In this document: positions 4,261 to 45,139 of the stretch, in pieces
Position numbering within the stretch: the stretch's first letter is position 1
Layout of the letters: each line of letters starts with the position of its first letter
From: Planctomycetota bacterium
GTDB lineage: Bacteria > Planctomycetota > J058
DNA: 64,000 nt
Direction of reading: 5' to 3'
Assembly (NCBI GenBank): GCA_041402045.1
Contig: JAWKSZ010000029.1
Location: forward strand, 270-64,269
Notes under the pieces: generated by a model
What the model was told of the DNA's origin: nothing
The model's input: only the letters and a program-made list of their open reading frames with translations
Database searches by the model: none
Made by a program: the position numbers and the translations under genes

Positions 4261-6833
4261 ATGGCTCTTACGCGCCGAACCCGCCTGGTGCTGTTCACCC
4301 TGCTCAGCCTGGTGCTGTTGGGGGTGGTCGTCTACGTCACGGGCCCGGAGAGCTCGGGTGGGCTCGGGGCGATCACGATCAAGCTCACGACCCCCGGCCC
4401 GCTGTCCCTGGCGCACGCGCCCATGGACGTCCAGGAGCAGTGCAGCGACTGCCACGAGCAGGCCGGCGGTCTGACCGGCGGTCTGTTGACGCCGGACCAG
4501 AAGTGCCGTGACTGCCACGTGGCCCTCGACGAGCGGATCCAGGCCGAGCGCGGGTTCCACGCCAAGATCGTGAAGGCCTTCGAGGGCGAGGGCGACACCT
4601 GCCGGCGTTGCCACGCCGAGCACCTGGGCAAGGACGTCCCGGTGGTCGTATGGACCACGGCCGAGGAGCCGTTCAAGCCCGCGGGGCGTGAGGACGCGAC
4701 GCAGAAGGACTTCCCCCACGAGGTGGCGACGGGCTTCGCGCTGAACGGCGCCCACAAGACGATCGAGTGCGAGGACTGCCACAAGCTCGCGCTGGTGAGC
4801 GACGACCCCACGGGGAAGGTCCAGGAGACGTTCCAGTCGGAGGCCGGCGAGTTCACCAGCTTCCTCGGCCTCTCCAAGACCTGCGCCGACTGCCACCAGG
4901 ACCCCCACGTCCCCAGCCAGGGCGCGGACTGCGCCAAGTGCCACTCCGAGGCGAAGTGGGACGAGCTCCCCGAGTTCGACCACGACCAGACGCGCTTCGC
5001 GCTCAACGGCGCCCACGAGACCGTGGACTGCGAGAAGTGCCACCTGGCGACGGGCGCGGATCCCCCGGCCCCGCCGCCCCCGCGGGCCTGCCCAACTTCC
5101 AGGCGATCGTGGCGGACTCGAAGCCGCGGGTGTTCCGCGGGGTGGGCTTCGGCACCGTGCGCGGGCACGAGGTCCAGGGCGAGGAGCTCCCGGACTGCAA
5201 GGCCTGCCACGAGAACCCGCACCGCGACACCGAGGCGTTCCTCGAGTGCAAGAGCTGCCACAACGAGACCAAGTTCGCGCCCATGGACGACCGCGCGAGC
5301 TTCGACCACGCGCCGTTCTATCCCCTGGAGGGCGCCCACGAGACCAAGGCCACCTGCGTCGGCTGCCACGGTGAGAAGGAGGGCGAGCGCGGGCCGCTGC
5401 TCCTGCCCAAGCGCGAGACCTGCCGCGAGTGCCACCAGGAGGACTACGACGAGTATCACGCGGGCAGCTTCGACCGCGAGCTGGAGGTCGCCTTCCGCGC
5501 CGACAGCGAGGGCTGCGCCCAGTGCCACGACGTGAAGAGCTTCAAGGAGTCGACCTACTCCCTCGAGGATCACACGCCTCAGGCGAAGCCCCCGGTGGCG
5601 ATCCCCCTGGCCGGCTCCCACGAGATCCGCTGCGAGTATTGCCACGGCACCGGCCGCGCTCAGCTCGAGCCTCTGGCCGCGGTGCGCGAGGGGCGCAAGA
5701 ACTTCACCAAGGACCGGCCCTTCCCCCGGCTCCCCGCTCAAGGCCGGTTCTCGATCGGGCAGCTCGAGAGCGACTGCGAGACGTGCCACGTCGACGTGCA
5801 CGAGGGCGCGCTCACGATCCCGGAGAAGGATCAGACCTGCGCCACCTGCCACTGGTTCGACGGCTGGCACGGGACCAAGACCGAGCCCCTGGACCGCGAC
5901 GGCCACGCGGCCCTGGGCTTCCCGATCCGGGGCAAGCACGACGAGATCTTCGACGACTGCCAGGCTTGCCACGGCGGCAAGACCCCGGAGGGCGCGCTGC
6001 GCGAGGTGGCGTTGGCGGAGATCAAGCAGAACCCCGCCGAGTCCTGCAACTACTGCCACCACGAGGTCGGCGAGGCGGCCCACCGGGGCACCCTGGGCAA
6101 GGACTGCGCGCGTTGCCACAACGAGCGCGAGTGGGATCCTGCCGAGTACACCTTCGAAGAGCACCAGCAGACGCGCTTCCCCCTCACGGACGCCCACGCC
6201 GCGGTGCCCTGCCAGGTGTGTCACGAGCCCCAGACGCTCCCCGCGGCCCAGCAGCCGGTCGCCGGTCAGACGATCCACTTCCACCCGCACACGTTCGAGG
6301 CGGACCCCCTGCGGTGCACCACTTGCCACCAGGAGGACTCCCCCCACGGACGGCAGTTCCAGCGCCAGGACTGCGATCGCTGCCACACCACCGAGAGCTA
6401 CTTGCCCTCGACCTACGACAAGCAGCGGCACCTCACCGACGCGCGCTTCCCCCTGGAGGACAAGCACGACACGGCGTGCACGCACTGCCACCAGCCGCCG
6501 GCCGGTCGCCCCCCCAAGAACGCGATCTACGAGGACACGCCCCGCGCCTGCGCCCTCTGCCACGAGGACTTCCACCTGGGGCAGTTCTTCATGAAGGGTC
6601 GTGAGGGCTGCTCGGTGTGCCACACGATCCAGAACTGGGAGCCCTCCCGCTTCGACCACGACAAGGCGCGCTTCCAGCTCAAGGGCGCGCACGAGACCCT
6701 CGCCTGCGAGGCGTGTCACCCCAAGATCTCGCGCACCTTCGACGGCGAGACCAAGGAGACCCCGCACTTCTTCCCCATGGAGGCGCGGGCCTGTCAGGAC
6801 TGCCACCAGAACCCCCACGGCGGCGCGAAGTAG
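4261..6833 (+). CDS. Multiheme cytochrome c, 26 CxxCH motifs, N-terminal TM/signal; split by a 1-nt frameshift at about 5062-5082
   Basis: 7 CxxCH in the first frame (ATG 4261) plus 19 in the frame ending 6833; repeated F-x-L-x-G-x-H-x(3-5)-CxxCH units; adding one C to a C5 run fuses them into about 857 aa. Confidence 0.9.
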
Positions 6834-6843
6834 TCGCGAGCCG

Positions 6844-6937
6844 CTGGGAGTAGGGTTTTCGACACGACTGGGAGTAGGGTTTTCGACACGACTGGGAGTA
6901 GGGTTCTCGACACGACTGGGAGTAGGGTTCGACACGA
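6844..6937 (+). repeat. 24-nt tandem repeat x4 containing GTAG
   Basis: CTGGGAGTAGGGTTTTCGACACGA at 6844 and 6868, a 1-nt variant at 6892 and a 22-nt variant at 6916; no spacers. Confidence 0.95.
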
Positions 6938-7115
6938 CCCGTTCGCGCCGCGCCGAAAGACCCGCCGTGCCCGCCGCTCGCCGACTCCGCCGACTTCGCC
7001 CGTTCGGCCTGCGATTTGCCCCTCCGGCCAGGACCCGGCCGAACCTCCGGCCACGCAGGCTTTGCGGAGTGTGGGCGGAAGCCGCGCGAAAACGTGCGCA
7101 TGCATGCAGGGCCCT

Positions 7116-8075
7116 CTAGGCGCTAGGGTGCGCAAGAACCAGGGCGCCGTAGCGCTGGCCGAGCAGCCACGGAAGCCCGGCAGGAGGGCGACCCGCGGGT
7201 CCTCGAGGCCAGGAGTCGCGCGCTTGCACGTAGTCGCGACGCCAGGCGGTGCGCTCCTCGCGCCGCGCGCGCACTCCTCGCGCGTGCCGAGACCGGCGAG
7301 GGCCGCTCGCCGCGAGGGCGGTAGGGCTCGGGCGTCGGGGGCGGGGACAAGGGGATCCGCGGTGAGGATCCGGCGGGCGCCGAGGAACGGACGCCCCTTC
7401 CGCTCGGCGAGGATCTCCGCGAGCCTGGCGTCGACGGCGGCCTGATAGACCCGGCGGTAGGCGGCGGAGTCCATGCCCTCGGGCAGGAGGTGCGTGGGCG
7501 GCATGGTCAGGGTCAGCTCGACGTCGTCGGGAGGGTGGAGTCCTCGGGGAGGGCGGTCGGGTCGCCGCCGCGGCGGTTGCCGCCGAAGAGGCCGTGGCGG
7601 GCTTGTGGGCGCGGAAGGTGCAGCCGACCTGGTCGGGGCGGGTGAGGAAGCCGGGGTAGGCCTTGGGGGAGGAGACCAGGCCGTCCTTGACCGGGTTCAG
7701 GGTCACGTAGACCAGGGTGCGGAGCAGGGCGTCGAAGCCGATCAGCTCGACCTTCTCGTAGGAGCCAGGGCCCCAGAAGTGGCCCTTGACGCCGTGCTGG
7801 GCGTTGAGGGCGCGGGCGATCATGGAGTTCATGCGCTGCATGAAGTCCGGGTGGCGGCCGTTGGGGTCGGTGATCACCAGGTGGAAGTGGTTCGTAGAGA
7901 AGCAGGCCGCGTGGACCTCGATCCCGCACTCCTTGGCCGCGTGGAACAGGGCGAACTTGACGATCGAGGTGACCTTGGAGTCCGGGGTCAGGCGACGAAG
8001 CCGGCGATCGCAGCGGCGGGTGAGGTGGTAGGTCTTGCCCTGGGTGACCGGGTCGGCCCGGGTGGTGGGCGTGAG
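7116..8075 (-). mobile_element. Degenerate RAYT / IS200-like Y1 HUH transposase with several frameshifts
   Basis: KTYHLTRRC, ACFSTNHFHLVITD (HUH), FMQRMNSMIARALN, GHFW, LVYVTLNPVKDGLV; the C-terminal half is scattered over three frames (...GLFGG..., DDVELTLTMPP...AEILAER...ILTADP, AWRRDYVQARDSW); no clear start codon. Confidence 0.8.
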
Positions 8076-8221
8076 GGAATAGGAGCGAGGCGAGAGGACC
8101 AGCACGCGAGGGGCGTGAGCAAAGCGGGGGCCGGGGCCAGAACAGGGGACTTGGGCGGCGGGGTGTGTCCCGGGGGCGGGAGAGGGGCTCACCCGGGGTG
8201 AATCGGGTCACCTGGGGTGAG

Positions 8222-11200
8222 CTACACCGCGAAGCGGGTGAGCACCACGTGCAGGAACATGGTCGCGATCACGATCACGGCCATGATCAGGTGCAGCGCG
8301 CGCCAGGTGTCCATGAAGTCGCGGACGGCCTCGGCCTGAGAGAGCCGGCGCTCGAGGCGCGACTGCTGCTTGAGCAGCTCCAGGGTCTCGACGATCACCG
8401 GGCGGGCCTGCTTGGCCTCCGCGGTGAGCATGAGCGCCTTGAGCTCCCGGGCCAGGCGGCGGTTCTTGACCATGGCCCGCAGGTCGGAGAGCAGCAGGGG
8501 GCCTAGGAACAACAGGCCCCGGGCCTTGGTGTCGGCGGGCGGGTTCAGGGCCTCGAGCGCGGCGTCGCGGAGCTTGGGGAACTGGGCCAGGCCCGTGCGC
8601 AGCACGCGGCGGAGGTCCGCCAGGCGCTGGGCCATATTGCTCCGCTCGCGCAGCTCCGACGCGCGGTCCTTGGGGCCGCCGAGGTTCTCCTCGTTGCGCA
8701 GGTAGCGCGGCACGTGGGAGAGCACGTAGCGCCCGAAGATCCCCGAGACCACCGCGAACAGGATCGCGAAGGAGCTCAGGCGCGCCACGAGGTTGCTCGT
8801 GAGCAGCGCGCTGTGGGCGAGCACCAGGCTCCCGCCGGTGAGCCCGAACAGGAAGTGCAGGTTCAACCACATGCGCAGGCTGATCAGCTTCTGGAACAGG
8901 CCAAACCGCCGGCGGAGCACGTAGGTCAGGTTGAGCAGGAACAGCGTCGACGCCGTGATCCCGAGGGTCAGGCCCACGGTCCCGCCGGGCTTGAGGACGT
9001 CGTGCAGCGCGTGGCGGCTGCGGTCCTGCACCGGGATCTGGTAGTAGTCCCAGCCGTTCCAGATCAAGAACGGGCCGATCAACGCGCCGCCGACGCTGAG
9101 CAGGATCCAGAGCGCGTCGCCCTGCCACAGGCGAATCAGGCGCATGAAGAACGCGACCGCCAACGTGTCGTCCGGCTCCGCCTCCTCCTCCTCCCACTCG
9201 CCCGAGACTTCACCGGTCTCGGAGAAGCCGAGGTCCGACTGCGCGCCGGGAGCCACGTTCACGAGCGGCGTGGCGTCGTCGCTCTCGAACAGACGCTGCT
9301 CCAGCGACGGATCCTGCTTGCCGAAGATCTCGGCGTGGGTCAGCTCCACGGTCCGCCCGCGGCCCTCGCGGGAGTGCTCGAGCGGGTCGCGGAACCTGCG
9401 CTCGCTGGACACGCTCCTGATGTCCGAGAGGTCACCGACGTCGGAGATCACCCCCTGGCCGGAGAGTTGGTTCAGGTTGGCCAGGAGCCGCGCCGCGTTG
9501 CCCGTGGCCGACTCCCCCCAGCGACCGCGACGCCAGGAGAGCACGTCGATCTCGCTGTCGGCGTCGAGCGGCTTGCTCATGAGTCCGTCGGAGGACTCGG
9601 CGCCGAGGGAGGCCACGGCCCGGTCTCGCTCGTCCGAGTCGACCAGGGACCCAAACGCGTCGAGCTGCTCGGGGCGAGTGCGGGTCAACTCCGCGGGCAT
9701 GCGGCTCGCAGGGCGCCGGCTCGCGAAGGGATCGTCCTGATCCGTCGCGTCCTCGAACACCGTGTCGTCCGAGCCGCTGAGCGAGCCGAAGTCGCTCTCG
9801 CGCACGTCCTCGAAGTCGTCGAGCTCCTCTTGTTGGGTGCGGGTGAGCAGGTCCTCGAGCTCCGCCGAGTCGGCGGGGTCGGGCTGGACCTTACCCTGAT
9901 CGCTGACGACGTCGAAGTCGTCGCCGCGCTGACGGATCGCGTAGGTGCCGCTCCCCGCGACCTCGTCCTCGTCCATGGCGCCGATCGGGTCGAAGGTCTC
10001 GCGAGACCCCGAGCCCGAGTGCTTCTTCCCTCCGCCGCGCGCCGCCCGAGCCGCGGCGATCGTGTAGCCCGGGGCCGCCGTCTCTGCCTTGCCGGAGGGC
10101 GCGGGGTAGTTGGGGGCGAGGGTCTGATCCTTGCCGGAGGGCGCGGGGTAGTGGGGGGCGAGGGTTTGGTCCTTGCCGGAGGGCGCGGGGTAGTGGGGGC
10201 GAGGGTCTGGTCCTTGCCGGAGGGCGCGGGGTAGTGGGGGGCGAGGGTTTGGTCCTTGCCGGAGGGCTTGGGGTAGTGGGGGGCGAGGGTCTGGTCCTTG
10301 CCGGAGGGCTTGGGGTAGTGGGGGGCGAGGGTTTGGTCCTTGCCGGAGGGCGCGGGGTAGTGGGGGCGAGGGTTTGGTCCTTGCCGGTGGGCTTGGGGTA
10401 GGTGGGGGCGAGGGTCTGGTCCTTGCCGGAGGGCGCGGGGTAGGTGGGGGCGAGGGTCTGGTCCTTGCCGGAGGGCGCGGGGTAGTGGGGGGGGAGCGTG
10501 CGCTCGCGCCCGGCGACGGGGCTGGGGTACCCCGGGGGGAGCGTCGGCGCGCCTGCTCCAGGGGGAGGCCTCCGGTCCGGCCGGCGCACGCGACCGGTGG
10601 GGCGCCGCCCAGGACGCGCGACCCTCGCCGTCGCCGTGCGCCGCCCGGGGCGCGGCGAGCGCCCCGTGCCTGGGTCGCCGGCGTGAGCGTCTGCTCGGGG
10701 CGGGCCGGGGCGAGGCGGCTGGGGGCTGTCGCCCACGGGCGCGCCCGCGTCGCTCTGGCGGGGATACTTGCCCGTCGGCGGGCGTCCGCTCGGGCGCGGG
10801 CCCTCGTCGCTCTGGCGGGGATACTTGCCCGTCGGGGGACGGCCGCTCGGGCGAGGGCCCTCGTCGCTCTGGCGGGGGTACTTGCCCGTCGGGGGACGGC
10901 CGCTCGGGCGAGGGCCCGCGTCGCTCTGGCGGGGATACTTGCCCGTCGGCGGGCGCGCGGGAGCCTCGCCGGTCGGCGCGTGCACACCCGCGGGCCGCGG
11001 GAACGTGCCGGTGGGCGGGCGCGTGCCGGCGCCCGGGGGCCGCGGGAACGACCCCGTCGGCGGGCGGCCGCCCGCCCGTGAAGTCGGCGAGGGCGGACCT
11101 CCGGCCGCCGGGCCGCGCTCGGACCGCGCGCTGCGCGGCGGCTCGGGAGGCGCCGCGCGCGGGGGCACCCAGCCTTCGCCGCTGTCGGGGAAGACCACGT

Positions 11201-11615
11201 CCTCGTCGCTGTCGGGGATCGTCGAGAGCATGCTCTCGTCGTCGTCGTCGATCGAGCCCTCGTCGCTGTCGACGAACACCGGGCCCTCGTCGCTGGCGAA
11301 GTAGGCGTCGTTGCGATCGACCTCCAGGAGCGGCTGCGTCCGCCGCCGCGCGATGGGGCTCTTGATCTCGCCGCTGTCGCTCTCCTCGGCCCGGGTCACC
11401 GGAGGGGGGCGCCGCTCGGGCGTCGGCGTGCTGCGTCGACCTCCGGCGAAGGGCGACCGGATCTCGTCGCTGCTCTCCTGGACGCGACCTTGGTCGGTCG
11501 GGCGGTCGCGGAACTGGAACTCGGCGAAGGCCTCGTCGTCCCAGGAGCGCCCGAACGCCCCTTCCCCCGACTCCCCCAGCGGGAAGCGTTCCGCCTCGTC
11601 GTCGCGCGGGCTCAC
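8222..11615 (-). CDS. Ferric-reductase/cytochrome b-like membrane protein with very long disordered repeat-rich N-terminus; two 1-nt frameshifts in G-runs (about 10197 and 10364)
   Basis: ATG 11615 overlaps the stop of the upstream flavoprotein (ATGA). C-terminal about 300 aa has several TM helices with WLNLH-x13-H and WRALH-x13-H; restoring G6 in two G5 runs gives one ORF of about 1131 aa. Confidence 0.8.
10087..10499 (-). repeat. 42-nt (14-aa, DQTLAP[H/T/N]YP[A/K]PSGK) coding tandem repeat, 10 core copies
   Basis: CCTTGCCGG cores at 10087, 10129, 10171, 10212, 10254, 10296, 10338, 10379, 10421, 10463; two units are 41 nt. Confidence 0.97.
10748..10955 (-). repeat. 57-nt (19-aa, GPRPSGRPPTGKYPRQSDE) coding tandem repeat, about 4 copies
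   Basis: CGTCGCTCTGGCGGGG at 10748, 10805, 10862, 10919. Confidence 0.95.
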
Positions 11616-13495
11616 GCCTCGTCGCCTCGCTCGTGGCGGGCCGATCCGCGTCGGCGGCGCGCAGACCCGCTGCCGCCCGACTCCCGCTTCGTGCGGCCGG
11701 TGTCGCGCGTGGTGCGGCCGGTGTCGCGCTTGGCGCGGGCAGAGTCGCCTCGCAGCTTGTCGCGGTCGAGGCGGCCCGCGTCCCGCTGGACGCGGCCGGT
11801 GTCGCGCTTGGTGCGCGCGGAACCACCGCGCCGGCGCGCCGAGTCGGTGGGGGACGGCGCGGGAGGGGGGGCGGGCTCGAGCGCGATCCCGTCGTCCTCC
11901 ATGTCCATGGCAGACCCGAGCTCGACCCCTGACACCTCGAGCTCGCTGTCCTCGAGGGCGTCACTCGAAGGCGCCGCGACGCGGTCGCCGCTCTTGCGCC
12001 GCGTGAGCTTGCCCGTGCCGCGGCGGCTCAACCGCGCGCTCACGCGCTTGGTGATCCGGCCGCTGCGGCGCCCCGTGTCTCCCGAGGTCTTGAGGGTCTG
12101 CGCCAGGCGGGTCGAGATCCGGTTCGTGGCCTTGGCGAGGGTGCGCGCCAGGCGCGCCGAGGAGTCCTGGCCCTCGACCCGCTCGCCGTGCTTGGTCTCG
12201 ACGTGGACGCCCATGGACTCGAGGAACGGCGTGGGGAGCACACCGCCCGCGTTCACGATCACGTCGTCGATCTCGAGGGTGAACGCCCCTTCGGGCGAGA
12301 TCATCTCCACGGTGTTCGCGCCGACGCGGGTCACGTTGCTGCGCAGGTGGACGTTCAGCCCGTTCTGCTCGGTGGCCTCCTGCAGCTTGTCGCGGTTCTT
12401 CTTCTTCACCCGGAAGAAGGACTCGCCGCGGTAGGCCAAGTGGACCTCGCAGCCCGCGGTCTCGCTGAGCTGGACCGCCGCCTCCACCGCGGAGTCGCCG
12501 CCGCCCACCACCAGCACCTTGCGGTGGCGGTACTGCTCGGCGTCCCCCAGGCGATAGACCACGTGCTCCTGCTCTTCGCCGGGGACCCCCAGCTTGCGCG
12601 GGGTCCCGCGCCGGCCGATCGCGAGGACCACGGTCCGCCCGCGGAAGGAGCGCGTTCCCTCGGGTGACTCGGTGTGCACGTGGAACTCGCCGAACTCGCC
12701 CTCCACCCCGGTGACCCGGTGGTTCTCGTGGATCGTGATCTTCGCCGCGGCGAGCACGCGCTCGAACTCGCTGATCAACTCCTCCTTGAGCATCTCCGCC
12801 TTGCCGAAGCGGCCCACGATCGGGAGCTTGATCACCTCGGAGAACACGAGCTTGCGCCGCGGGTAGTGGGCCACGCTCCCGCCGAGCTGATACTGCTCCA
12901 CCAGGTGGTAGGTCAGGCCCTTGTCCACCGCGGCCAGGGCAGCGGCGACGCCGGCGGGTCCGCCGCCCACGATCACCATGTCGCGCAGCTCGGGGTCCTG
13001 CTGGAACGGATCCGCGAGCACGCTCTTGAGGGTGTCCACCACCTGGACGCCTTGACGCATGGCGTTGCGAATCAGCCCCATGCCTCCCAGCTCGCCAATG
13101 ACGTAGATCCCGTCGACGTTGGTCTCGTACCCCGCGCGCAACAGCGGGATGTCGATGCCGCGCTGCGCGGTGCCGAACACGAGCGAGATGGCGTTGACCG
13201 GGCACACGTCCGCGCAGCGTCCGTGGCCGATACACCCGCTCGCCTGCACGAGGTAGGTCGAGCCGTCGACGATGCCCAACACGTCCTCGGGGCAGGCGTC
13301 GACGCAGGCCCCGGACGCCATGCACACGTCCATGTCGATGACCGGGTGCAGGCTCGCGACCTGATTCATGCCGCCCGAGACTGCTTCCTCGAGCAGCTCG
13401 CGCAGCTTGTCCTCGCGGCGGAAGAATACGAGGACCCCCACCGCGACCGACACCACGACGACCAGGAACGTTCCAACGACCAGGTAGGTGAGCAC
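11612..13495 (-). CDS. Membrane-anchored 2x[4Fe-4S] + FAD/NAD(P)-binding oxidoreductase (thioredoxin-reductase/YpdA-like fold) with basic disordered C-tail
   Basis: GTG 13495 after GGAG; N-terminal TM; CMASGACVDACP and CIGHGRCADVCP; GGGPAG, GRRGTP, GGGDSA motifs; no CxxC redox pair seen; tail rich in DTGR/SGR. Confidence 0.9.
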   Translation of the reverse strand: MLTYLVVGTFLVVVVSVAVGVLVFFRREDKLRELLEEAVSGGMNQVASLHPVIDMDVCMASGACVDACPEDVLGIVDGSTYLVQASGCIGHGRCADVCPVNAISLVFGTAQRGIDIPLLRAGYETNVDGIYVIGELGGMGLIRNAMRQGVQVVDTLKSVLADPFQQDPELRDMVIVGGGPAGVAAALAAVDKGLTYHLVEQYQLGGSVAHYPRRKLVFSEVIKLPIVGRFGKAEMLKEELISEFERVLAAAKITIHENHRVTGVEGEFGEFHVHTESPEGTRSFRGRTVVLAIGRRGTPRKLGVPGEEQEHVVYRLGDAEQYRHRKVLVVGGGDSAVEAAVQLSETAGCEVHLAYRGESFFRVKKKNRDKLQEATEQNGLNVHLRSNVTRVGANTVEMISPEGAFTLEIDDVIVNAGGVLPTPFLESMGVHVETKHGERVEGQDSSARLARTLAKATNRISTRLAQTLKTSGDTGRRSGRITKRVSARLSRRGTGKLTRRKSGDRVAAPSSDALEDSELEVSGVELGSAMDMEDDGIALEPAPPPAPSPTDSARRRGGSARTKRDTGRVQRDAGRLDRDKLRGDSARAKRDTGRTTRDTGRTKRESGGSGSARRRRGSARHERGDEA

Positions 13496-13960
13496 CGTCG
13501 ACTCCGCAACGGACGGTACTGCATGGGGCGCAGAAGTTCCATTACCCCCGTGTACATAAGGTGCGTTGCACGCCCTGCGGGCTCGCAGCCTCGCGATCCC
13601 AGCTTTACGGTTCGCGTCGGCCCGATGGACGCGGGGGGCCTGCTCGGTGTCGCCGAAGTGAGTCATCTCCCCCCCAAAGCTCCACTGTTGCCATTGTGCG
13701 ACGGGTGTCCACGGGCAGGCATGATGCATAAGTCCATTGGATAAAGGACGCGACGCACTGCAGTGAAGGACCTTCCCAGAACGCGGTTCCACCCCACTGG
13801 CCGGGAACATCGTTCACGAAATCTGTTCCAGGTTCGGACCGTTGCATGGGGCTGACACGGCTGCCGTCGGTGGGTACCACCTGCGAAGGAAGGGGGTCAG
13901 CACTGGGATCAAAGGGGTTGTGACAAGTCCGAGCGAGTGGACGGGCGATGAAGACGCCGC

Positions 13961-13976
13961 TGGTATGGCCCGTGCA
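13961..13976 (+). promoter_or_regulatory. Putative sigma-54 promoter
   Basis: TGGTATGGCCCGTGCA = GG-N10-GC, about 45 nt upstream of ATG 14022, within an intergenic region of about 520 bp. Confidence 0.4.
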
Positions 13977-14021
13977 TTAGAGGCTGCTGAGGTCTTCGGC
14001 ATGTCCCGAGAGAGGTTCAGG

Positions 14022-16241
14022 ATGCTGCAGGTGAATGGTAAGAACTTTCTGGTAATGGCAAACGCCATGGTGGCCGTGGGGGCTGCCGTTGGCTTCATGG
14101 GCTGCGGCGGTGGCGGCGGCTCAGGCGGTGGTGGAGGTTCGACCACCGCGCCCATCACGAGCGGTGGCAACCAAGGGGTCGTCGGTCCGATCAGCGGACT
14201 CGCGGTCAACCCCGGCGCCAGCACGCTCGAGCTCTACTCGGCCGGCACTGCCGCGACCAACGAGCAATTCCAACTGGTGATCGACGGCTACGACGCGAAC
14301 GGGAACGCTAAGGACCTGACTCGCGACGTGACCTACACCGTGAGCGACGACACGGTGGTCGCGATCGACGGGAACGGCCTCATGACGGCCCAGGCTCCCG
14401 GTTCGGCGACCATCGATATCTCGTTCCCGGGCTCCAGCCTTCAGACGTCGGTCTCGGTCAACGTCGTGGCGGCTCCGGCCAACCTGACGGCTCCGACCTT
14501 CACCGGCCTGGAGATCCTGCCCAAGTCGCGCACCCTGGATGAGGTGAACACCGCGGCCGGCGTGGAGCAGCTCCAGCAGATCGTGATCGTCGGCACCGAC
14601 AACACCGGTCGCCTGTGGGACTTGACCCGCAGCAACGGCGTCGAGCTGCTCGACTACGCGGACCCGAGCCTGAACCCGCTGCCGATCAGCACCGCGGGCC
14701 AGCTCGACGCGACCACCGGCCTGTTCCGTGGTGTCGTGGACAGCAGCGACGTGCTGCTCCTGACCCAGGGCGCGGCTGGCCAGGCTGCTTCGCACTTCCA
14801 CATTGGCGTGGGCCAGTCGAAGCCGGTCTCCCCGACCGCCCTCTACAGCGGCGCGCCGCTGGCGGGCTCGGGTAACCCCCTCGACCAGGCGGTGCTGTCG
14901 GTCCTGGCTCCGGCCGCGATCGAGCCGGCTCCCCTGACGACCAACGGTGAGTTCGTGCGCCGCGTCTACGCGGATTCGATCGGCCGTCTGCCCACCCCGG
15001 CGGAGACCGAGGCCTTCCTGGCCAACCCGGACCGCGACGCTCTGGTGGACGCGCTCGTCGGCTCGGCCGCGTTCGACAACCACATGGGCAAGTTCTTCGG
15101 CGAGCACTTCCGCATGCAGGACCTGGCGTTCGACGCCTGGATCGCCAGCGAGCTGGCTGCCGGCTCGACCGCGGAGAAGATCTGGAGCGACCTGATCACC
15201 GAGACCGGCGCTGGCTCCGCCCTGTTCGTGGCCGAGCACGCCGAGGTCGCCGAGCAAATGGAGACGATCGTCCACGTCGGCTCGGGCTACACGGTGGAGT
15301 GCGATCGTTGCCACAACCACCCGACCGCGAGCATGGCGGACGACCCGCACGCGCTCCAGACCCAGCGCTACCAGCTCGACGCCTTCTTCGTGACCGACCT
15401 GGACGAGACGATCCCCCTCGACCGCGCCGGGAACCGCACCGGGAACAACGGCAACCGGATCGAGCCGGGCTGGCCCTTCGACGCGAACGTCGCGGTGACC
15501 TCGACCCTGGCCGACCCCGTCGCCACCCGTCGCGCCGAGTTCGCCCAGATCTTCACCAAGTCGGACATTTTCTACCGTGGGCTGGCGCACCGCCTCTTCG
15601 GCTCGGTCGCTCAGGCCCTCCTCGACCCGAACCAGGTGCTGAAGGCCACCCTGGACAGCGTGCAGAACAAGCCCCTGCTCGACGCGCTGGCCGCGACCTT
15701 CAAGACTCAGAACGGCTCGATCAAGGACTTCATGACCACCGTGTTCAAGAGCAAGGTCTACCAACTGAGCTCGAACTACGCGGACACCATGAACGACGGG
15801 CTGGTCGTGCGTCACCCGCTGGATCGCTTCCAGGCTGAGGCCATGGAGACCCTCGTCGCCAACGTGACCGGCTCCATGCCCACCTCGGGCGCCTTCTTCC
15901 GGGACGCGTTCGGCTTCCCCCTGACCCGCTCTGCGATCACCGAGCGCAGCACCGTGGTCAACATGAGCCAGTCGCTGATCCTCATGAACAGCCCGACCGT
16001 GCACGGGGGTCTGACCTCCGCGACCGGGACCGTCGCCACCCTGGCGGGTCAGGTCTCGGGCGGCACGATCACCCAGGCGGACGCCGTGAACGCCATTTTC
16101 AAGGCGGCTCTGGCCCGTGACGCGTCGGCCACCGACATGCAGGCTGCCAACGACCTGATCGGTCAGGCCGGCAGCATGCAAGAGGGCCTCGAGGACGTCG
16201 CTGCCGCGGTCCTCTCCTCGATCGAGGCGGTCGCCCGCTAA
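14022..16241 (+). CDS. Lipoprotein with Ig-like (Big_2) + DUF1549/DUF1553 (planctomycete cytochrome-associated) domains, one CxxCH
   Basis: RBS GAGAGG; hydrophobic signal ending FMG-C then Gly/Ser linker; Big_2-like DVTYTVSDDTVVAIDGNGLMTA; EFVRRVYADSIGRLPT (DUF1549); CDRCH; QSLILMNSP (DUF1553). Confidence 0.8.
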   Translation: MLQVNGKNFLVMANAMVAVGAAVGFMGCGGGGGSGGGGGSTTAPITSGGNQGVVGPISGLAVNPGASTLELYSAGTAATNEQFQLVIDGYDANGNAKDLTRDVTYTVSDDTVVAIDGNGLMTAQAPGSATIDISFPGSSLQTSVSVNVVAAPANLTAPTFTGLEILPKSRTLDEVNTAAGVEQLQQIVIVGTDNTGRLWDLTRSNGVELLDYADPSLNPLPISTAGQLDATTGLFRGVVDSSDVLLLTQGAAGQAASHFHIGVGQSKPVSPTALYSGAPLAGSGNPLDQAVLSVLAPAAIEPAPLTTNGEFVRRVYADSIGRLPTPAETEAFLANPDRDALVDALVGSAAFDNHMGKFFGEHFRMQDLAFDAWIASELAAGSTAEKIWSDLITETGAGSALFVAEHAEVAEQMETIVHVGSGYTVECDRCHNHPTASMADDPHALQTQRYQLDAFFVTDLDETIPLDRAGNRTGNNGNRIEPGWPFDANVAVTSTLADPVATRRAEFAQIFTKSDIFYRGLAHRLFGSVAQALLDPNQVLKATLDSVQNKPLLDALAATFKTQNGSIKDFMTTVFKSKVYQLSSNYADTMNDGLVVRHPLDRFQAEAMETLVANVTGSMPTSGAFFRDAFGFPLTRSAITERSTVVNMSQSLILMNSPTVHGGLTSATGTVATLAGQVSGGTITQADAVNAIFKAALARDASATDMQAANDLIGQAGSMQEGLEDVAAAVLSSIEAVAR

Positions 16242-16258
16242 GCGGGTCTCCCCGCTCG

Positions 16259-16289
16259 GGGTGGCGCGCGCACTCGGCGTGCGCCACCC
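16259..16289 (+). other. 13-bp intergenic hairpin
   Basis: GGGTGGCGCGCGC-ACTCG-GCGTGCGCCACCC between the DUF1549 and DUF1501 genes. Confidence 0.5.
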
Positions 16290-16357
16290 AGAGGCCGGGG
16301 CTATAGGTAGAAAACGTTCACAGCACAAACACACAAGACACATTCGGAGTTATCGAA

Positions 16358-17797
16358 ATGGCTAACATTCACAGCAGCAGCGACTACGACTACAACCGTC
16401 GTCAGCTGCTCAAGCTCGCGGGTAAGGGCGTGGTGCTCGGCGCGGCTGGCCTCTCGCTCCCCAACCTGCTCTTCATGCGGGAAGCCGCTGGCCTCGACCT
16501 GGACCCCAACGTGCAGCTCTTCGACGGGTTCATGCAGATCTTCTTTACCGGCGGCCCTGGGATTGGCCAGGACATTGCCGACTACAAGAACCCTGCGGAC
16601 AACCCCACGACCTCGTTCAACCCGATCAACATGGGCGTGAACGACGTCTACGGGAACCCCATGCGGGTGACCGACGCGATCCAGAACCTGGCGGCCAAGG
16701 CTCAGAACGACCCCATGGTGAGCCTCGCGGTCGTGCGCTCCATGCGGCACAACAACAACAACCACGGCACCGGTCAGGAAATGAACACGTCGTGGTGGCA
16801 AGGCGCGCTGCTCAACACCATGCCCGCGATCGCCCCGACCATGGCCTACTACATGCAGGGCAAGGGCGTCGGGATCCCGGCGGTGCTCGTCAACGGCGAC
16901 AACGGCAACAACGCCAACAACGCCCGCGGCAACACCCGCATTCCGACGGCGCTCACGGTGACCGTCGGCGGGAACCAGAACAACAACCCGGTCGTCGAGG
17001 CCCTGAGCCTGCCCCAGGGCGTGGATCAGGCGCGTTACAGCCGCCGCAAGGCCATGCTCGACCAGATGAACGCGCGCTTCCTCTCCGCCAACCCCGACGG
17101 CCTGGCCAAGGCCTACGAGAAGGCCACCAAGGACGCGTTCGACATCACCATGAAGGGCGAGGCCGCCGCGGCCTTCGACCTCGCGGGCAAGCCGCTCCTG
17201 CCGGGTGGCAACAACGGCATTCGCCAGCGCGCGACCCTCGCCCAGAACCTGCTCCTGGCGGGCGTGCCCTACGTCTCCATGGGCCAGGGTGGTAACGACT
17301 ACCACGGCAACGCCAACCAGTCGGTCACTAACAACTGGCAGAACAACCTCGACGTCTATCTGCCGGCCATGATCGACAACCTGAAGGCCTCCGGGAAGCG
17401 CTACCTGATCCAGATCTGCGGTGACTTCGATCGGACGCCGGACGGCAAGGGTGGCTTCGGCGCCAACGACAACGGTCGTGACCACTGGGGTGAGGCTCAG
17501 AGCCACATTCTGATCGGCGTCAACCAGCCGAAGCTGAAGACCACGGCGGTGGGCGACACCGGGCCTCGCGGCACGGGCACGGTCAACACCACCCGCCGCA
17601 ACGGTCAACCGGGCGTGCTCGTGGATCCGTTCCCCATGGCCGCCATGGGCTACGTGGTCTACCGCGGCATGGGGATCAACCTGTTCCAGCCGGACGGGTA
17701 CTACGACATTCCCACCACGCTGCGCGACGCGCCTCCGGTCGACCGCCAGATCGGCCTGACCGACGGCGTGAAGCTGAGCAACTTCCTGATCGCGTAG
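16358..17797 (+). CDS. DUF1501 family protein with twin-arginine signal
   Basis: YNRRQLLK Tat motif; IFFTGGPG; GDFDRTP...GRDHW C-terminal motif; typical partner of DUF1549/1553. Confidence 0.88.
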   Translation: MANIHSSSDYDYNRRQLLKLAGKGVVLGAAGLSLPNLLFMREAAGLDLDPNVQLFDGFMQIFFTGGPGIGQDIADYKNPADNPTTSFNPINMGVNDVYGNPMRVTDAIQNLAAKAQNDPMVSLAVVRSMRHNNNNHGTGQEMNTSWWQGALLNTMPAIAPTMAYYMQGKGVGIPAVLVNGDNGNNANNARGNTRIPTALTVTVGGNQNNNPVVEALSLPQGVDQARYSRRKAMLDQMNARFLSANPDGLAKAYEKATKDAFDITMKGEAAAAFDLAGKPLLPGGNNGIRQRATLAQNLLLAGVPYVSMGQGGNDYHGNANQSVTNNWQNNLDVYLPAMIDNLKASGKRYLIQICGDFDRTPDGKGGFGANDNGRDHWGEAQSHILIGVNQPKLKTTAVGDTGPRGTGTVNTTRRNGQPGVLVDPFPMAAMGYVVYRGMGINLFQPDGYYDIPTTLRDAPPVDRQIGLTDGVKLSNFLIA

Positions 17798-17886: not shown

Positions 17887-19197
17887 ATGGATCGGATCGG
17901 CGTCGTCGGGATCTCGTGGCGCTCGGGGGGACCCGAGGCGCTCGCGCCGTTCACGCGGGGGCCCGCGGAGCGGGCGCGCATGCTGCCCGAGCTGGCCCAG
18001 GCGATCGGGTCGCCGGAGGTGTTCTACCTCGCGACCTGCAACCGGGTCGAGGTCGGCTTCGTGACCGACGGCAAGACCCCGCTCGGGGCCTACCGGCCCC
18101 GGGTGTTCCGCTACTTCACCGGGCGCGAGCCCGAGCCGGGGGAGGCCGAGCGCGTGTTCCGCGCCTGGGCCGGGGAGGGCGCGGCAGAGCACGTGTTCCT
18201 GGTGGGCGCCGGGCTCGACTCGGCGAAGGTCGGGGAGACCGAGATCGCGGGGCAGTTGCGTGAGGCGCTCAAGCACGCGCGCGCCGCCGGGACCTGTCGC
18301 CTGCGCCTGGGGCTCGTGCTCGAGGAGGGGCTCAAGGTCGCGAGCAGGGTCCACACCCTGACCGGGCTCAGCAGCGGGCGGATCTCGCTGGCGGAGATCG
18401 CCCTGGACCGGGTCCGCGGGCGGCTGAGTGAGACGCCTGGCTGTGTGGCCCTGGTCGGGGTCTCGGCCATGACCGAGCGCTGCGCCCGCGCGCTGATCGC
18501 CGAGGGCCACGCGGTGCTGGTGGTCAACCGCACCCTGACCCGGGCCGAGGAGCTCGCGAGCTCCGTCGGCGCCCGCGCCCTGAGCCTGGAGGCCTTCCAG
18601 GCCGCCCCGCCCGGCGTGGAGGCGCTGGTGCTCGCGACCGGCGCCGACGGGCCGGTGTTGGGCAAGGCCGCCCTCGAGCGCCTCGCCGCGCAGGCGCCCT
18701 CGGGACGCCCGCCGCTGGCGGTGGACCTCGCGGTGAACCCCGACGTCGACCCCCAGGCGGCGCGGGAGGCCGGGGTGCCCCGGGTCCCGCTGCAGGAGGT
18801 GATCGACGAGGCCGCCTCGACCCGCGACCAGCGCCTGGTGGAAATGGCCGACGCGCGGGTGCTCGTGGACGAGGCCCTGGTCGCGTTTCGCCGGCGGCTG
18901 GCGCAGCGTGTGCTCGGCCCCGTCGTCGGCGCGATCCAGCGGCGCTACCTCGAGACCGCGCGCGCCGGGCTCGAGCGGCTGCTGAACAAGGAGCTCTCGG
19001 GGCTGGGCCCCGACGAGCGCCAGGCCGTCGACCGCTGGCTCTCGACCTTGGCGCGGCGCTTCGCGCACCTCCCCAGCGAGGGGCTCAAGGGCGTGGCCTT
19101 CGAATACGGCGCGGGCGCGGTGGAGGCGTTCCTCGCCAAGGGCGCGCCGGAGCTGCTGCAGGTGCTCGAGGACCTCCCCGAGGACGACCCGCGGTGA
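17887..19197 (+). CDS. hemA: Glutamyl-tRNA reductase
   Basis: LATCNRVE catalytic motif, HVFLVGAGLDSAKVGETEIAGQ, LVVNRT, AVDLAVNPDVDP. Confidence 0.9.
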   Translation: MDRIGVVGISWRSGGPEALAPFTRGPAERARMLPELAQAIGSPEVFYLATCNRVEVGFVTDGKTPLGAYRPRVFRYFTGREPEPGEAERVFRAWAGEGAAEHVFLVGAGLDSAKVGETEIAGQLREALKHARAAGTCRLRLGLVLEEGLKVASRVHTLTGLSSGRISLAEIALDRVRGRLSETPGCVALVGVSAMTERCARALIAEGHAVLVVNRTLTRAEELASSVGARALSLEAFQAAPPGVEALVLATGADGPVLGKAALERLAAQAPSGRPPLAVDLAVNPDVDPQAAREAGVPRVPLQEVIDEAASTRDQRLVEMADARVLVDEALVAFRRRLAQRVLGPVVGAIQRRYLETARAGLERLLNKELSGLGPDERQAVDRWLSTLARRFAHLPSEGLKGVAFEYGAGAVEAFLAKGAPELLQVLEDLPEDDPR

Positions 19198-23803: not shown

Positions 23804-26058
23804 TCCTTGCCCTGGTGGCGGAGCACGTAGACCAGGGCCTCCTTGGCGCAGACCTCTTCGTAGCCGATCGCGGCCAGGCGCTCGAAGGCGTCGACCACGC
23901 GCTGCTGATCGACCTCGTCCACCCGCGCCCAGTCGTCGGTACCGTAGCGCAGGAGCTGGGTCTGGAACTTGCTGATCGCCGCCTCGCGCTCCTTGTGATA
24001 GTGCGCGCGCAGGGCGCCGAAGATGTCCGAGAAGATCTCGCGGTAGGCCACGGGCTTGCCGGGGTTGTCGATCACCCAGGCCGCGATCCTGAGGATCAAG
24101 CCCTTGCGGTACTCCTTGGGTTTGGTGTCCCCGATCCCGACCCGCGCCTCGACGCGCTCCATGAGCTGGGTCGAGGCCGGCTCCAGGCGCTGGGTGTGAG
24201 GGTTCAGCACCTTCTCGTTGGCGTCGAAGGCGCGCACGTGCTGGAAGTAGTCCTCGAACAGCTGCTCGTAGGCGCCCTCGGTGACCAGGGCCAGGGCCTG
24301 GTGGACCTCGTTGCGCACCAGGCGCCGATACTCGCTCTCGGCGTAGTCGGTGAGCGCGTCGACGTCGTTGTAGTCGCCGTCGGGGTCGAGGCGCAGGAAC
24401 TCGTAGAGCCGGCGGTCGGCGGCGAGGGCGCGGATCGCCTTGAGCACGGCCAGAGGGGAGAGGCACGGCGACTCCTCGTCGAGGACCGCGTCCTGGAGCA
24501 GGGTCTTGACCTCCCGCGGGCTCGCGCCGCGCCGGCCTTCGTAGGCCGTGTCGGGGAGCCCTTCGAACTCCTCCTCGACCACGTCCCACTCGGTGGCGAG
24601 CTCCTCCAGGTGGCGCAGCAGCTCGCGGCGCTCGGCGTCGCTCCAGCCCTCGGGGGCGGTGCCGTCGTTGTAGAGGTGGGCCTTCTCCAGCGGGTTCAGG
24701 CGCGCGACCAGGGGCTTTATGTCGCCGGTGTAGTGGTCGGGCTGGGGCCGGCGCAGGCGGGTCAGCACCGCCCACAGCGCGGCGATCCGCGTGGTGTGGG
24801 GGGCGATCGGCTTGTGGTTCGCGATCGAGGTGATCTCCCGCGCGTAGATCTGCTCCTCGATCGACCAGCGCAGGAGGTAGGGCGCGCGCACCAGCTCGAA
24901 GCGCCCCTTGAACGAGGGGAAGTCCGGGTTGCGCTTGAACAGCGTCATGTTCTTCTCGTTGGAGGTCGCGAACAGGACGCAGTCGAGCTCGGCGCTGGCG
25001 TCGGGCAGGCTGATCGTGCCCTTCTCGCTGGTCGTGAGCAGGTATTTGCTCAGCTCCAGCGGGCGCTTGAAGAAGTCGGAGTATTCGACCAGCCCGCGGT
25101 TGGCGTCGACGAGGTCGCCCGAGAGCTCGCTCAGGCTCGACTGGCTGAGCATGGGGGGCAGGCGGTAGCTCTTCTCCAGGTTCAGCGGGCGCGAGCCCGC
25201 GTCGACGTTGCGCTGGGGCTGGATCACCACCGCGCAGCGGCGGTAGCGGCGGCTGACGTAGAGCCGCTCGACCTGCACGTGGTCGTAGACCCGAGGCAGG
25301 TCGCCCTTCCGCGCGTTGACCAGCGCGTCGAAGATCGGGCGGTTCTTGGGGCTGAGGTCGCCCTCGCGCAGCACGTCGGGCAGGCGGAAGGGCTGCTTGG
25401 CGGCGGCGAAGGCCTTCTGCAACAGCTCGAGCCGGTCGCCGGCCGGGATCAGGAGCAGGGGGTGGTCCTTCAGGTCGGGGCCCAGCTTGAAGCTGATCTG
25501 GTCGGGCTCGAGGTAGGCCAGCGAGCTGCCGCCGGCGGGCGGGTCCTTCTCGAGGAAGCCGAAGCTCGCGCCCTCGGGGCGGTCGCTGAACACCCAGTTG
25601 AAGGTGTAGAGCACCCCCTCGGGCAGGCTGGAGTAATGCTCCATGCCCGCGGTCATGCACTCGACGAAGGTCGACTTGGCGGTGCCGTTGGGGCCGTGGA
25701 GCATGATCAGCTTGTCGACGCGGCCGCGCTCGCAGAAGGTCGTGAGCTCCTTGTAGACCTCGTTCTGCAGCGTCTCCTGGCCCAGGACCCGGGTCTTGTG
25801 CCCGTTGAACTCGGCGTCGAACAGCTTGAACCGGCGCTGGCGCCCGCGCGGCGTCTGCACGGTGGTCGTGCCGAAGTGGTCGAACAGGTCGCGCAGGTAG
25901 AGCGCCGCGTTGCGGGTGTGCCGGGCGGGGTCTTCGAGCACCAGCTCCAGGTACTCCGGGAACGAGAGGATCGTGCGCTGCGTCTCGAACCGCTCGCAGC
26001 TCGTTTGGCGCAGCTCGTCGAGGAGCTTCTTGGCGGGGGTGTCGAGGCTCTGCGTCAC
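23800..26058 (-). CDS. prkA: PrkA-family AAA serine protein kinase
   Basis: GTG 26058 after GGAGG; LHGPNGTAKST Walker A, GDLVDANRGLVEYSDFFK, GRRGASPRE. Confidence 0.85.
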   Translation of the reverse strand: MTQSLDTPAKKLLDELRQTSCERFETQRTILSFPEYLELVLEDPARHTRNAALYLRDLFDHFGTTTVQTPRGRQRRFKLFDAEFNGHKTRVLGQETLQNEVYKELTTFCERGRVDKLIMLHGPNGTAKSTFVECMTAGMEHYSSLPEGVLYTFNWVFSDRPEGASFGFLEKDPPAGGSSLAYLEPDQISFKLGPDLKDHPLLLIPAGDRLELLQKAFAAAKQPFRLPDVLREGDLSPKNRPIFDALVNARKGDLPRVYDHVQVERLYVSRRYRRCAVVIQPQRNVDAGSRPLNLEKSYRLPPMLSQSSLSELSGDLVDANRGLVEYSDFFKRPLELSKYLLTTSEKGTISLPDASAELDCVLFATSNEKNMTLFKRNPDFPSFKGRFELVRAPYLLRWSIEEQIYAREITSIANHKPIAPHTTRIAALWAVLTRLRRPQPDHYTGDIKPLVARLNPLEKAHLYNDGTAPEGWSDAERRELLRHLEELATEWDVVEEEFEGLPDTAYEGRRGASPREVKTLLQDAVLDEESPCLSPLAVLKAIRALAADRRLYEFLRLDPDGDYNDVDALTDYAESEYRRLVRNEVHQALALVTEGAYEQLFEDYFQHVRAFDANEKVLNPHTQRLEPASTQLMERVEARVGIGDTKPKEYRKGLILRIAAWVIDNPGKPVAYREIFSDIFGALRAHYHKEREAAISKFQTQLLRYGTDDWARVDEVDQQRVVDAFERLAAIGYEEVCAKEALVYVLRHQGKD

Positions 26059-26293
26059 GCGCCCTCCTGCTCCTGAGTCTAGCGCCAATCCTCGGGGGAT
26101 TCTGCGGCGGGGGACGCGAGGAGGTGGGGGCGCTAACCCGCCACGGAGCCGGGACATCGGAGAACCATCCCGGGGATGTCGGATGGCCTGCGTAGAGTGG
26201 GGCGCGTTGCCCGCTGGGCCAGCTCCCATGCGGCTTCCCGCACACTCCCTGCTCCTCGCCCGACGCTAGTTCGGCGACAGAAAGGACCCTCCC

Positions 26294-26944: not shown

Positions 26945-26971
26945 TCCACCCCGAGCCGAGAGAGCTACCCC

Positions 26972-28140: not shown

Positions 28141-28145
28141 GGCGT

Positions 28146-28204
28146 CCCCGTGCGGGAACGTTCTCGTGCGGGAACGCAAGGCCGTTCTCGTGTGGGAACG
28201 CAGG
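28146..28204. repeat. Three short palindromic units between convergent genes
   Basis: CCCGTGCGGGAACG, GTTCTCG-TG-CGGGAAC, GTTCTCG-TG-TGGGAAC. Confidence 0.6.
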
Positions 28205-28234
28205 CGCGGGCGGCCGGGGGCGCGGCTTCCGCCC

Positions 28235-43337: not shown

Positions 43338-43387
43338 GGGAGTGAGTATGCCCGACCGCGAGGAGCCGGACGAGCGAGATTCCAGGA

Positions 43388-45080: not shown

Positions 45081-45139
45081 GCGCTCCCCCCTCGGCCCCC
45101 AAGGTAGCGGGCGAGGCGGGCCCTGTCTCCGCTCAGGGG

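Follow-up and report, generated by a model that had tools for sequence, protein, structure and literature searches.

To our knowledge, every well-studied extracellular electron transfer pathway of Gram-negative bacteria starts at the quinone pool, by way of CymA, ImcH or CbcL. The closest described relatives of the system reported here are the PCC3 and PCC4 gene clusters, whose "conserved inner membrane protein" has ~300 aa and five transmembrane (TM) helices, with an SGXXG motif on TM4 and a WX3HX13H motif on both TM3 and TM5 (He et al. 2017, PMC5566968). He et al. compared this inner-membrane protein (IMP) with the ferric reductase domain (FRD) and with cytochrome b, proposed, independently of our work, that it binds a pair of b-hemes and conducts electrons through the inner membrane, and suggested that it is a quinone-active diheme protein (PMC5566968). 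The IMPs of PCC3 and PCC4 are not detectably homologous to each other, and PCC3, a cluster of four genes from Proteobacteria, was a prediction only and had no cytoplasmic partner (PMC5566968); in later work it still comprises four genes, of untested function (PMC12442390). Here we analyse a related locus in a stretch of 64,000 nucleotides, hereafter the window, which corresponds to positions 270-64269 of contig C29 (JAWKSZ010000029.1) in the metagenome-assembled genome (MAG) of an uncultured member of the Planctomycetota (7.9 Mb, 83% complete, ~70% G+C).

The system is a widespread and uncharacterised variant of the predicted PCC3/PCC4 type, equipped with a flavoprotein. On balance, the window probably holds three parts (a flavoprotein, an IMP and a 26-heme cytochrome c) of a five-part, envelope-spanning electron conduit fed by NAD(P)H, whose function we infer and whose carriers we order by gene content, natural fusions and predicted topology. 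An earlier reading of this stretch (the original prediction) had proposed a conduit of three components; the module turns out to have five, the remaining two, a decaheme cytochrome and an outer-membrane beta-barrel protein, being encoded on another contig of the same genome.

A conserved five-gene module

The close relatives of the window locus are all Planctomycetota, and their full module consists of genes for the flavoprotein, the IMP, the 26-heme cytochrome, the decaheme cytochrome and the outer-membrane beta-barrel. The genes stand in this order in every same-family locus that shows genes downstream of the IMP, with the flavoprotein gene upstream of it wherever the contig extends that far; at one locus (L002) consecutive module genes overlap by 4 nt. 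We surveyed this linkage in 301 Planctomycetota genomes, searching for the flavoprotein at <=10 kb of the IMP gene. Among the 61 loci with a strong IMP match, 54 carry the flavoprotein gene within 10 kb on the same contig, 36 of the 61 within 300 nt, and the loci without a nearby flavoprotein are mostly on short contigs. The linkage goes as far as natural fusions of flavoprotein and IMP: about 29 of the 61 loci are single open frames of 740-860 aa, and three translated ones run from a TM anchor through a Fer4 domain and a FAD/NAD(P)H domain to a 5-TM domain.

The association extends well beyond this phylum. A pattern scan of one genome per species across phyla detected carriers in at least 570 species genomes, including Thermoanaerobaculia and other Acidobacteriota, Calditrichota, Ignavibacteria, Zixibacteria, Krumholzibacteriia, Eisenbacteria, KSB1, Fibrobacteraceae and Bacteroidota. 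From these we fetched 80 loci, of which 73 have a cytochrome with at least six CxxCH within 8 kb of the IMP, most commonly a 20-26-heme cytochrome abutting the IMP gene followed by a second cytochrome with 10 to 85 hemes; the flavoprotein is present in 36 of the 38 cross-phylum loci with full 10-kb flanks. The same five parts are annotated in Sunxiuqinia sp. A32, Calditrichota GD2 and an Ignavibacteriaceae MAG, the first two, together with the Bacteroidota isolate Maribellus sediminis, being examples of cultured or named carriers. The association of the three families predicted from the window, linked across many phyla and often fused, is thus real and strong, far beyond chance.

The resemblance to PCC3/PCC4 concerns both the IMP and its surroundings. 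The IMP family has five TM helices in ~300 aa, WX3HX13H on TM3 and TM5 and SGXXG on TM4, and stands beside a ~21-24-heme periplasmic cytochrome, a second multiheme cytochrome and a beta-barrel porin. This cluster context was found in all relatives with enough flanking sequence, and in the genome under study it is split between contigs C29 and C35. The likeness to the proteobacterial IMPs is one of motifs and architecture. In contrast with PCC3/PCC4, a Fer4-FAD-NAD(P)H flavoprotein is here a near-constant fifth member, in many loci as a fusion with the IMP. The module is carried by Planctomycetota, Acidobacteriota, Ignavibacteria, Calditrichota and Bacteroidota, among others. The original prediction, which knew of no characterised system of this composition, was partly anticipated, since the IMP type and its FRD-like motifs had already been described for PCC3/PCC4 (PMC5566968), whereas no description of the flavoprotein partner or of the fusion was found in a literature search of incomplete coverage, so that this absence is no proof.

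A membrane-anchored flavoprotein with an iron-sulfur domain

The first member of the module has the following parts in the window:

11612-13495, minus strand: flavoprotein gene with a GTG start, 627 aa
13406-13492, minus strand (aa 2-30): TM anchor, an N-terminal hydrophobic helix followed by RRED
13184-13348, minus strand (aa 50-104): Fe-S domain, Pfam Fer4_10 (34 bits, 2.4e-8), Fer4 dicluster-type
12164-12982, minus strand (aa 172-444): FAD/NAD(P)H domain, Pyr_redox_3 (137 bits, 9.7e-40) and Pyr_redox_2 (109 bits)
aa 445-627, minus strand: tail of ~180 aa, disordered and rich in Arg, Thr and Asp

This composition confirms that the dehydrogenase differs in fold from that of NOX: both the Pfam matches (Pyr_redox_2/3 plus Fer4) and the nearest solved structures, which are YpdA/Bdr and the NADPH-dependent FNRs of thioredoxin reductase (TrxR) type, point to a TrxR-like protein. 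Its best NCBIfam match is YpdA (TIGR04018), at 148.1 bits against a cut-off of 339.9. No CxxC occurs anywhere in its 627 aa, nor did we find a disulfide CxxC in the FAD/NAD(P)H domain of any of ten aligned flavoproteins from five phyla. Judging from these domains and motifs, the protein is a TrxR-fold relative of the FNR/YpdA group devoid of CxxC. It shares with TrxR-type FNRs and YpdA/Bdr, its top matches in the PDB and NCBIfam, the FAD and NADPH Rossmann motifs and the missing CxxC; unlike the flavoprotein, these are soluble enzymes with neither a TM anchor nor a fused Fe-S domain. We rejected an identity with the bacillithiol disulfide reductase YpdA/Bdr itself on the grounds of the score below the cut-off, the additional anchor and Fe-S domain and the constant linkage to the IMP and cytochromes.

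The Fe-S domain departs from what had been predicted. A 2x[4Fe-4S] ferredoxin contains eight cysteines in two CxxCxxCxxxCP motifs; the window domain contains exactly six, three in each motif (C58-x2-S-x2-C64-x3-C68-P and C88-x2-H-x2-C94-x3-C98-P). It nevertheless passes the Pfam cut-off of Fer4_10. Thus, of the predicted flavoprotein, the TM anchor, the FAD/NAD(P) domain and the absence of CxxC stand, as does the ferredoxin-like match, but not the eight-cysteine clusters, and two canonical [4Fe-4S] clusters are not assured because each motif has only three cysteines. Among the ten aligned flavoproteins, the second position of motif 1 is Cys or Ser/Thr, some of them keeping the full motif, and motif 2 reads CxGHGxCxxxCP in all ten, with an invariant His. 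Such a histidine is reminiscent of His-ligated exit clusters. In the tail, a 21-nt tandem repeat at 11691-11748 encodes RDTGRxx.

A five-helix membrane protein with two invariant histidine pairs

The IMP gene lies immediately downstream of the flavoprotein gene, and its parts, with histidines numbered from the translation of 8222-9250 (minus strand), are:

8222-11615, minus strand: IMP gene, 3394 nt, in three frames as sequenced
upstream part of that gene, minus strand: N-terminal extension of ~790 aa, disordered, repeat-rich, cytoplasmic
8222-9250, minus strand: membrane domain, five hydrophobic helices by AlphaFold2 (AF2; mean pLDDT 79.7) and hydropathy, in a frame different from that of the N-terminus
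8855-8857 and 8813-8815, minus strand: His codons of the TM3 motif W128x3H132x13H146 (WLNLH132)
within the membrane domain, minus strand: TM4 motif S169GxxG173
8291-8293 and 8249-8251, minus strand: His codons of the TM5 motif W316x3H320x13H334 (WRALH320)
10087-10496, minus strand: 42-nt tandem repeat, 9.8 copies, encoding xYPxPSGKDQTLAP

The two His pairs spaced i/i+14 that had been noticed in the membrane domain are indeed there, on TM3 and TM5: H132, H146, H320 and H334 are invariant in 57 diverse IMP relatives, as are W316, G170 and G173, and W128, W316 and SGxxG are conserved in alignments of 16 and of 57 sequences. The AF2 model also has a long, helical cytoplasmic insert between TM4 and TM5. 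The family is a large one: clustering at 50% leaves 3908 representatives, and clustering at 90% yields over 4000 clusters; a typical relative measures 285-300 aa, to which the window family adds the disordered N-terminal extension.

As sequenced, the gene is not the single open reading frame (ORF) that had been taken for granted, since two one-base deletions shift the frame twice and three overlapping ORFs (9891-11615, 9685-11964 and 8222-10987) cover it. From its GTG start, the frame reads RFPLGESG and then low-complexity repeats, and stops at 9891. Within the 42-nt repeat, two units have 41 nt (10338-10378 and 10171-10211) and a C run of 5, not 6; these shortened runs, at ~10362-10366 and ~10195-10199, are the two -1 frameshifts, and when the YPxPSGKDQTLAP frame is kept throughout, one IMP of ~1131 aa results. 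We regard this as a single gene because the frame is open over 712 aa, from the repeat region through the membrane domain, on a 2.8-kb contig of a sister genome (L033), and because the N-terminal motif RFPxGE(S/T)G is common to more distant relatives (P0006-P0008). Start and stop do overlap between the two genes, as had been noticed, although the flavoprotein stop and the IMP GTG start form GTGA, not ATGA.

Further upstream in the extension, a 57-nt tandem repeat (10743-10952, 3.7 copies) encodes PPTGKYPRQSDEGPRPSGR in frame. The repeat-bearing disordered segments, namely this extension and the flavoprotein tail, flank the point at which other lineages have the fusion.

Multiheme cytochromes and an outer-membrane barrel

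The third gene of the module in the window has the hallmarks of an exported multiheme cytochrome c, with many CxxCH motifs and an export signal:

4261-6833, plus strand: 26-heme cytochrome c gene, with an N-terminal signal/anchor helix and Pfam matches to Cytochrome_C7, c3_2 and MtrC/MtrF_II-IV

The count of 26 CxxCH was correct, though 7 are in one frame and 19 in another; the eight same-family orthologues each have exactly 26 in a single frame. Outside the family, the module's second cytochrome has as many as 68 and 85 CxxCH in two Eisenbacteria MAGs (L122 and L124) and 52-58 in several Ignavibacteria (L082, L090, L093 and L103).

The decaheme and barrel genes are intact in the genome under study, on contig C35 at 25527-28297. 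The small cytochrome counts 10 CxxCH in L002, and the 614-aa barrel protein of the module has a signal peptide and ends in ...ARYRF, without any Pfam match. The AF2 model of the own-genome protein, built with five relatives, has a small N-terminal beta domain and ~24 long strands (pLDDT 64 overall, higher in the barrel). A Foldseek search with this model gave 185 matches at E<=1e-3, and all 50 of the 50 listed are outer-membrane beta-barrel proteins. Counterparts in several phyla share a common N-terminal motif and end in RYRF or RF. The modelled barrel fold, the signal peptide and the C-terminal F together characterise an outer-membrane porin. By its architecture, the pair looks like MtrA/MtrB. 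As in MtrAB, MtoAB and PioAB, the gene for a decaheme cytochrome precedes one for an outer-membrane beta-barrel. No family-level sequence match was found for the barrel, however, and it adds the small N-terminal beta domain; in those systems, moreover, electrons enter at the inner membrane through a quinol dehydrogenase (CymA, ImoA), not through a flavoprotein and a cytochrome b.

A proposed electron path from NAD(P)H to the cell surface

A conserved transmembrane electron chain is strongly supported by comparative genomics. In the path that we propose, the flavoprotein would be tethered by its N-terminal helix to the cytoplasmic side of the inner membrane and oxidise NAD(P)H at its FAD domain without a redox disulfide. 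Electrons would then cross its own ferredoxin-like Fe-S domain, which is probably placed at the membrane surface because it follows the anchor directly. The next carrier would be the 5-helix IMP, with two b-hemes held between TM3 and TM5, one near each membrane face. Both the flavoprotein and the TM4-TM5 insert are most likely cytoplasmic, since the flavoprotein precedes TM1 in the fusions and the loops after TM2 and TM4 are Arg-rich. Fusion order and positive-inside reasoning further suggest that TM3 and TM5 run parallel, from inside to outside, with H132/H320 and H146/H334 at matching depths. Residues i and i+14 of a helix are ~21 Å apart, the geometry of two stacked bis-His hemes. The outer b-heme would reduce the membrane-tethered 26-heme cytochrome c, which is probably long enough to span the periplasm, and the decaheme cytochrome inside the ~24-strand barrel would take them across the outer membrane to an acceptor outside, for instance metal oxides, humics or partner cells. 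Flow in this direction would be favoured by the potential of NAD(P)H and by the membrane potential, and the quinone pool would be bypassed, as in NOX. Such a path would dissipate membrane potential, and would therefore serve redox balancing or the reduction of surfaces rather than proton pumping. The cytoplasm-to-periplasm chain of the original prediction is the most economical reading.

The proposed path resembles that of NOX and ferric reductases, in which electrons pass from NAD(P)H through a flavin and two bis-His b-hemes stacked across the membrane to an acceptor outside, one polypeptide may comprise both dehydrogenase and heme domain, and His pairs are found on TM3 and TM5. In the IMP 13 residues separate the histidines of each pair, and 12-13 is the spacing characteristic of ferric reductases. 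The differences are substantial. The IMP has five helices, not six; in place of the C-terminal FNR-like domain of NOX (FAD_binding_8/NAD_binding_6), its partner is a TrxR-like protein of two Rossmann domains (Pyr_redox_2/3) plus a Fer4 domain, either separate or fused on the N-terminal side; and the proposed acceptor is a cytochrome c wire instead of O2 or Fe(III) chelates. A few Planctomycetota do encode true bacterial proteins of NOX/FRE type (L130, L133 and L134), which join a ferric-reductase domain to an FNR-like one, and FRD-Rieske fusions occur as well (L131 and L132). Another parallel is offered by the Tmc and Hmc complexes of sulfate reducers, in which a multiheme cytochrome c in the periplasm, a cytochrome b in the membrane and an Fe-S protein in the cytoplasm make up a transmembrane path independent of quinones, such as we propose here. 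In these complexes, however, the cytochrome b comes from another family (NarI/HdrE type), a CCG-domain Fe-S protein stands in place of the NAD(P)H flavoprotein as the cytoplasmic subunit, and electrons go inward, toward sulfite reduction.

Sequence profiles relate the IMP only loosely to known diheme proteins. Neither Pfam nor NCBIfam gives a significant match to the window IMP, NCBIfam none to its N-terminal extension either, and the PF01794 profile does not match it. Sub-threshold Pfam matches among the 57 relatives fall on three diheme-cytochrome families: DUF4405 (45 members), Ferric_reduct (28, best 1.5e-4) and Ni_hydr_CYTB (23, best 1.1e-5). DUF4405 (PF14358) was rejected as an assignment for the IMP, as this two-helix model of 66 positions touches TM5 of one IMP, below the cut-off. 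A search of PDB sequences with the family profile returned coiled-coil noise only, from the cytoplasmic insert.

Several points weigh against the path. An hhalign comparison of the IMP family with five bona fide Planctomycetota FRD domains gave a probability of 1.1%, only the TM3 helix with HX13H being aligned, and a Foldseek search of the PDB with the IMP model gave a best E of 0.74, helical-bundle noise only. The NOX-like homology claimed for the IMP is consequently not demonstrated, the resemblance being architectural, and because no fold or profile match is significant, the diheme reading rests on motifs and conservation. Heme b binding, the nucleotide used, the direction in which electrons move and their last acceptor are predictions, and each Fe-S motif of the window protein has only three cysteines. 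The IMP may have a quinone site, as He et al. proposed. Export of electrons from NAD(P)H dissipates membrane potential, so that the benefit to the cell must be indirect. Finally, the genes are frameshifted and dispersed here, which makes their function in this particular genome doubtful.

Rearrangement and frameshifts in the local copy

Two further features lie between the cytochrome and IMP genes:

6844-6938: 24-nt tandem repeat, 4 copies, directly after the cytochrome stop, beside the rearrangement junction and the transposase remnant
7116-8192, minus strand: transposase remnant, RAYT/IS200-like but weak (REP_Tyr_transpos 54 bits with a cut-off of 80; Y1_Tnp 28.7 bits)

The cytochrome gene, on the plus strand, does converge on the flavoprotein and IMP genes on the minus strand, as had been noticed. 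The transposase relic said to separate them is recognisable, although its match remains below the family cut-off, and its coding signal is confined to 7651-8041. In relatives, the cytochrome gene stands directly downstream of the IMP gene, in the place that the remnant occupies in the window. Gene order and orientation differ here from those of all relatives; since the 26-heme gene is inverted beside the remnant and the decaheme and barrel genes are on C35, the operon has been rearranged and split in this genome. The 24-nt repeat was considered as a member of a REP family and rejected, being unique in the genome. In the sister genome, a Ser/Thr protein kinase gene (L033 2140-2774) follows the IMP stop where the window has the remnant, which indicates more than one rearrangement downstream of the IMP gene within the genus.

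The alignment with the eight orthologues places the loss of one base in the Pro-rich linker of the cytochrome gene, at ~5060-5090. Together with the two in the IMP gene, there are three single-base deletions, all in C-rich runs. Because the operon is broken and carries these deletions, the local copy may be decaying, unless the deletions are assembly errors. That it is a relic, in which a transposase-associated inversion was followed by separation of the decaheme and barrel genes and then by frameshifts, with loss of the full-length IMP and 26-heme cytochrome, is a serious possibility, though one that we hold to be somewhat doubtful. If errors struck G/C runs >=5 at random, the chance that all three deletions fall in these two genes would be ~0.004. 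Elsewhere in the window, mutL, prkA, hemA and a glutamate-synthase-like gene give full-length, single-frame matches, and a GC3 frame scan has no comparable break other than an anomaly at 42075-46250; the unusual gene order and orientation and the open IMP frame in part of the gene on the short contig of the sister genome agree with decay as well. On the other hand, each of the three changes removes a single base from a C run, and two lie within a tandem repeat of 420 nt, a kind of site where MAG assemblies often go wrong. No stop codons or deletions of greater size have built up, the 26 heme motifs and the four histidines are all preserved, the codon-position GC signal continues before and after every shift, and the C35 genes for the decaheme cytochrome and the barrel are undamaged.

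At 42075-46250 on the minus strand, one frame is open over ~4.2 kb; the codon-position GC signal leaves this frame at ~43441-43981 and then returns. Either three separate genes or a single gene with a pair of compensating shifts could produce this pattern.

Alternative electron routes and implications

Whatever the state of the local copy, the direct path from flavoprotein to IMP has to be weighed against a route through quinones, in which the IMP, as a diheme cytochrome b, would oxidise quinol or reduce quinone and the flavoprotein would act as a dedicated NDH-2-like NAD(P)H:quinone reductase feeding a local pool. NDH-2 enzymes have the same flavoprotein fold with two dinucleotide-binding domains, but they lack an Fe-S domain. 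The weak matches of 23 of the 57 IMP relatives to Ni_hydr_CYTB, a quinone-reactive cytochrome b family (best E 1.1e-5), and the fact that a quinone-linked function has already been published for PCC3/PCC4 (PMC5566968) favour such a route, whereas partners linked by a diffusible quinone would need neither fusion into a single polypeptide nor an Fe-S domain with an invariant His ligand at the membrane surface, and no quinone-site motif was identified in the IMP. We therefore consider it unlikely.

Still less probable is inward flow, in which Fe(II), reduced humics, a cathode or a syntrophic partner would donate electrons at the cell surface, and the cytochromes and the IMP would deliver them to the Fe-S/FAD protein and on to NAD(P)+ or another cytoplasmic acceptor, even though TrxR-type FNRs are reversible enzymes. 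PCC3 clusters do occur in Fe(II) oxidisers, and Sideroxydans sp. CL21 up-regulates the IMP gene of its PCC3 copy 2 during iron oxidation (PMC12442390), but the proteobacterial PCC3 of iron oxidisers has four genes and no flavoprotein, the flavoprotein-bearing version is found mainly in heterotrophic lineages, reduction of NAD(P)+ (about -320 mV) by donors at the level of Fe(II) is uphill, and the flow would oppose an inside-negative membrane potential in a cluster without any energy-coupling subunit.

Taking outward, quinone-independent transfer as the preferred reading, we tentatively suggest, with a confidence that stops short of an even call, that these loci represent an unrecognised "NOX-like" class in bacteria, in which an NAD(P)H/FAD/Fe-S dehydrogenase and a diheme IMP would feed 20- to 85-heme wires and porin-cytochrome complexes without a quinone, and which would supply the missing PCC3-type entry point in at least 10 phyla. 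If so, the NAD(P)H-fed conduit would be a different point of entry into extracellular electron transfer, a redox valve independent of respiration, and it would account for the giant cytochromes of hundreds of fermentative or facultative lineages without known metal respiration. The uncharacterised IMP of PCC3/PCC4 would gain a concrete partner and a testable mechanism. The single-chain fusions of 740-860 aa, together with the cultured Sunxiuqinia and Maribellus, make biochemistry feasible, and such a fusion could in addition offer a compact means of connecting the cell's NAD(P)H with an electrode.

Neighbouring genes and a second module

A hemA gene about 4 kb beyond the flavoprotein gene had been taken as a sign of high heme demand. 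The gene is real (17887-19197), with two unrelated genes between it and the flavoprotein gene, but it is not kept near the module in relatives: only one of ten loci has a hemA-like match, 33% identical and ~5.5 kb upstream of the flavoprotein. We rejected hemA as a part of the system on this basis, its proximity looking coincidental.

A second module was not found in the genome under study, which is 83% complete. A sister genome of the same genus does hold a second, divergent one (L028, on G001:C261), with a flavoprotein 55% identical to that of the window, 26-heme and 19-heme cytochromes and a short-type IMP of 30% identity.

On the upstream side, PSCyt2/PSD1 (DUF1549/DUF1553) and DUF1501 genes adjoin the flavoprotein gene both in the window (13842-17797) and in a member of another genus (L002, 2447-6193), so that this side of the locus is syntenic.

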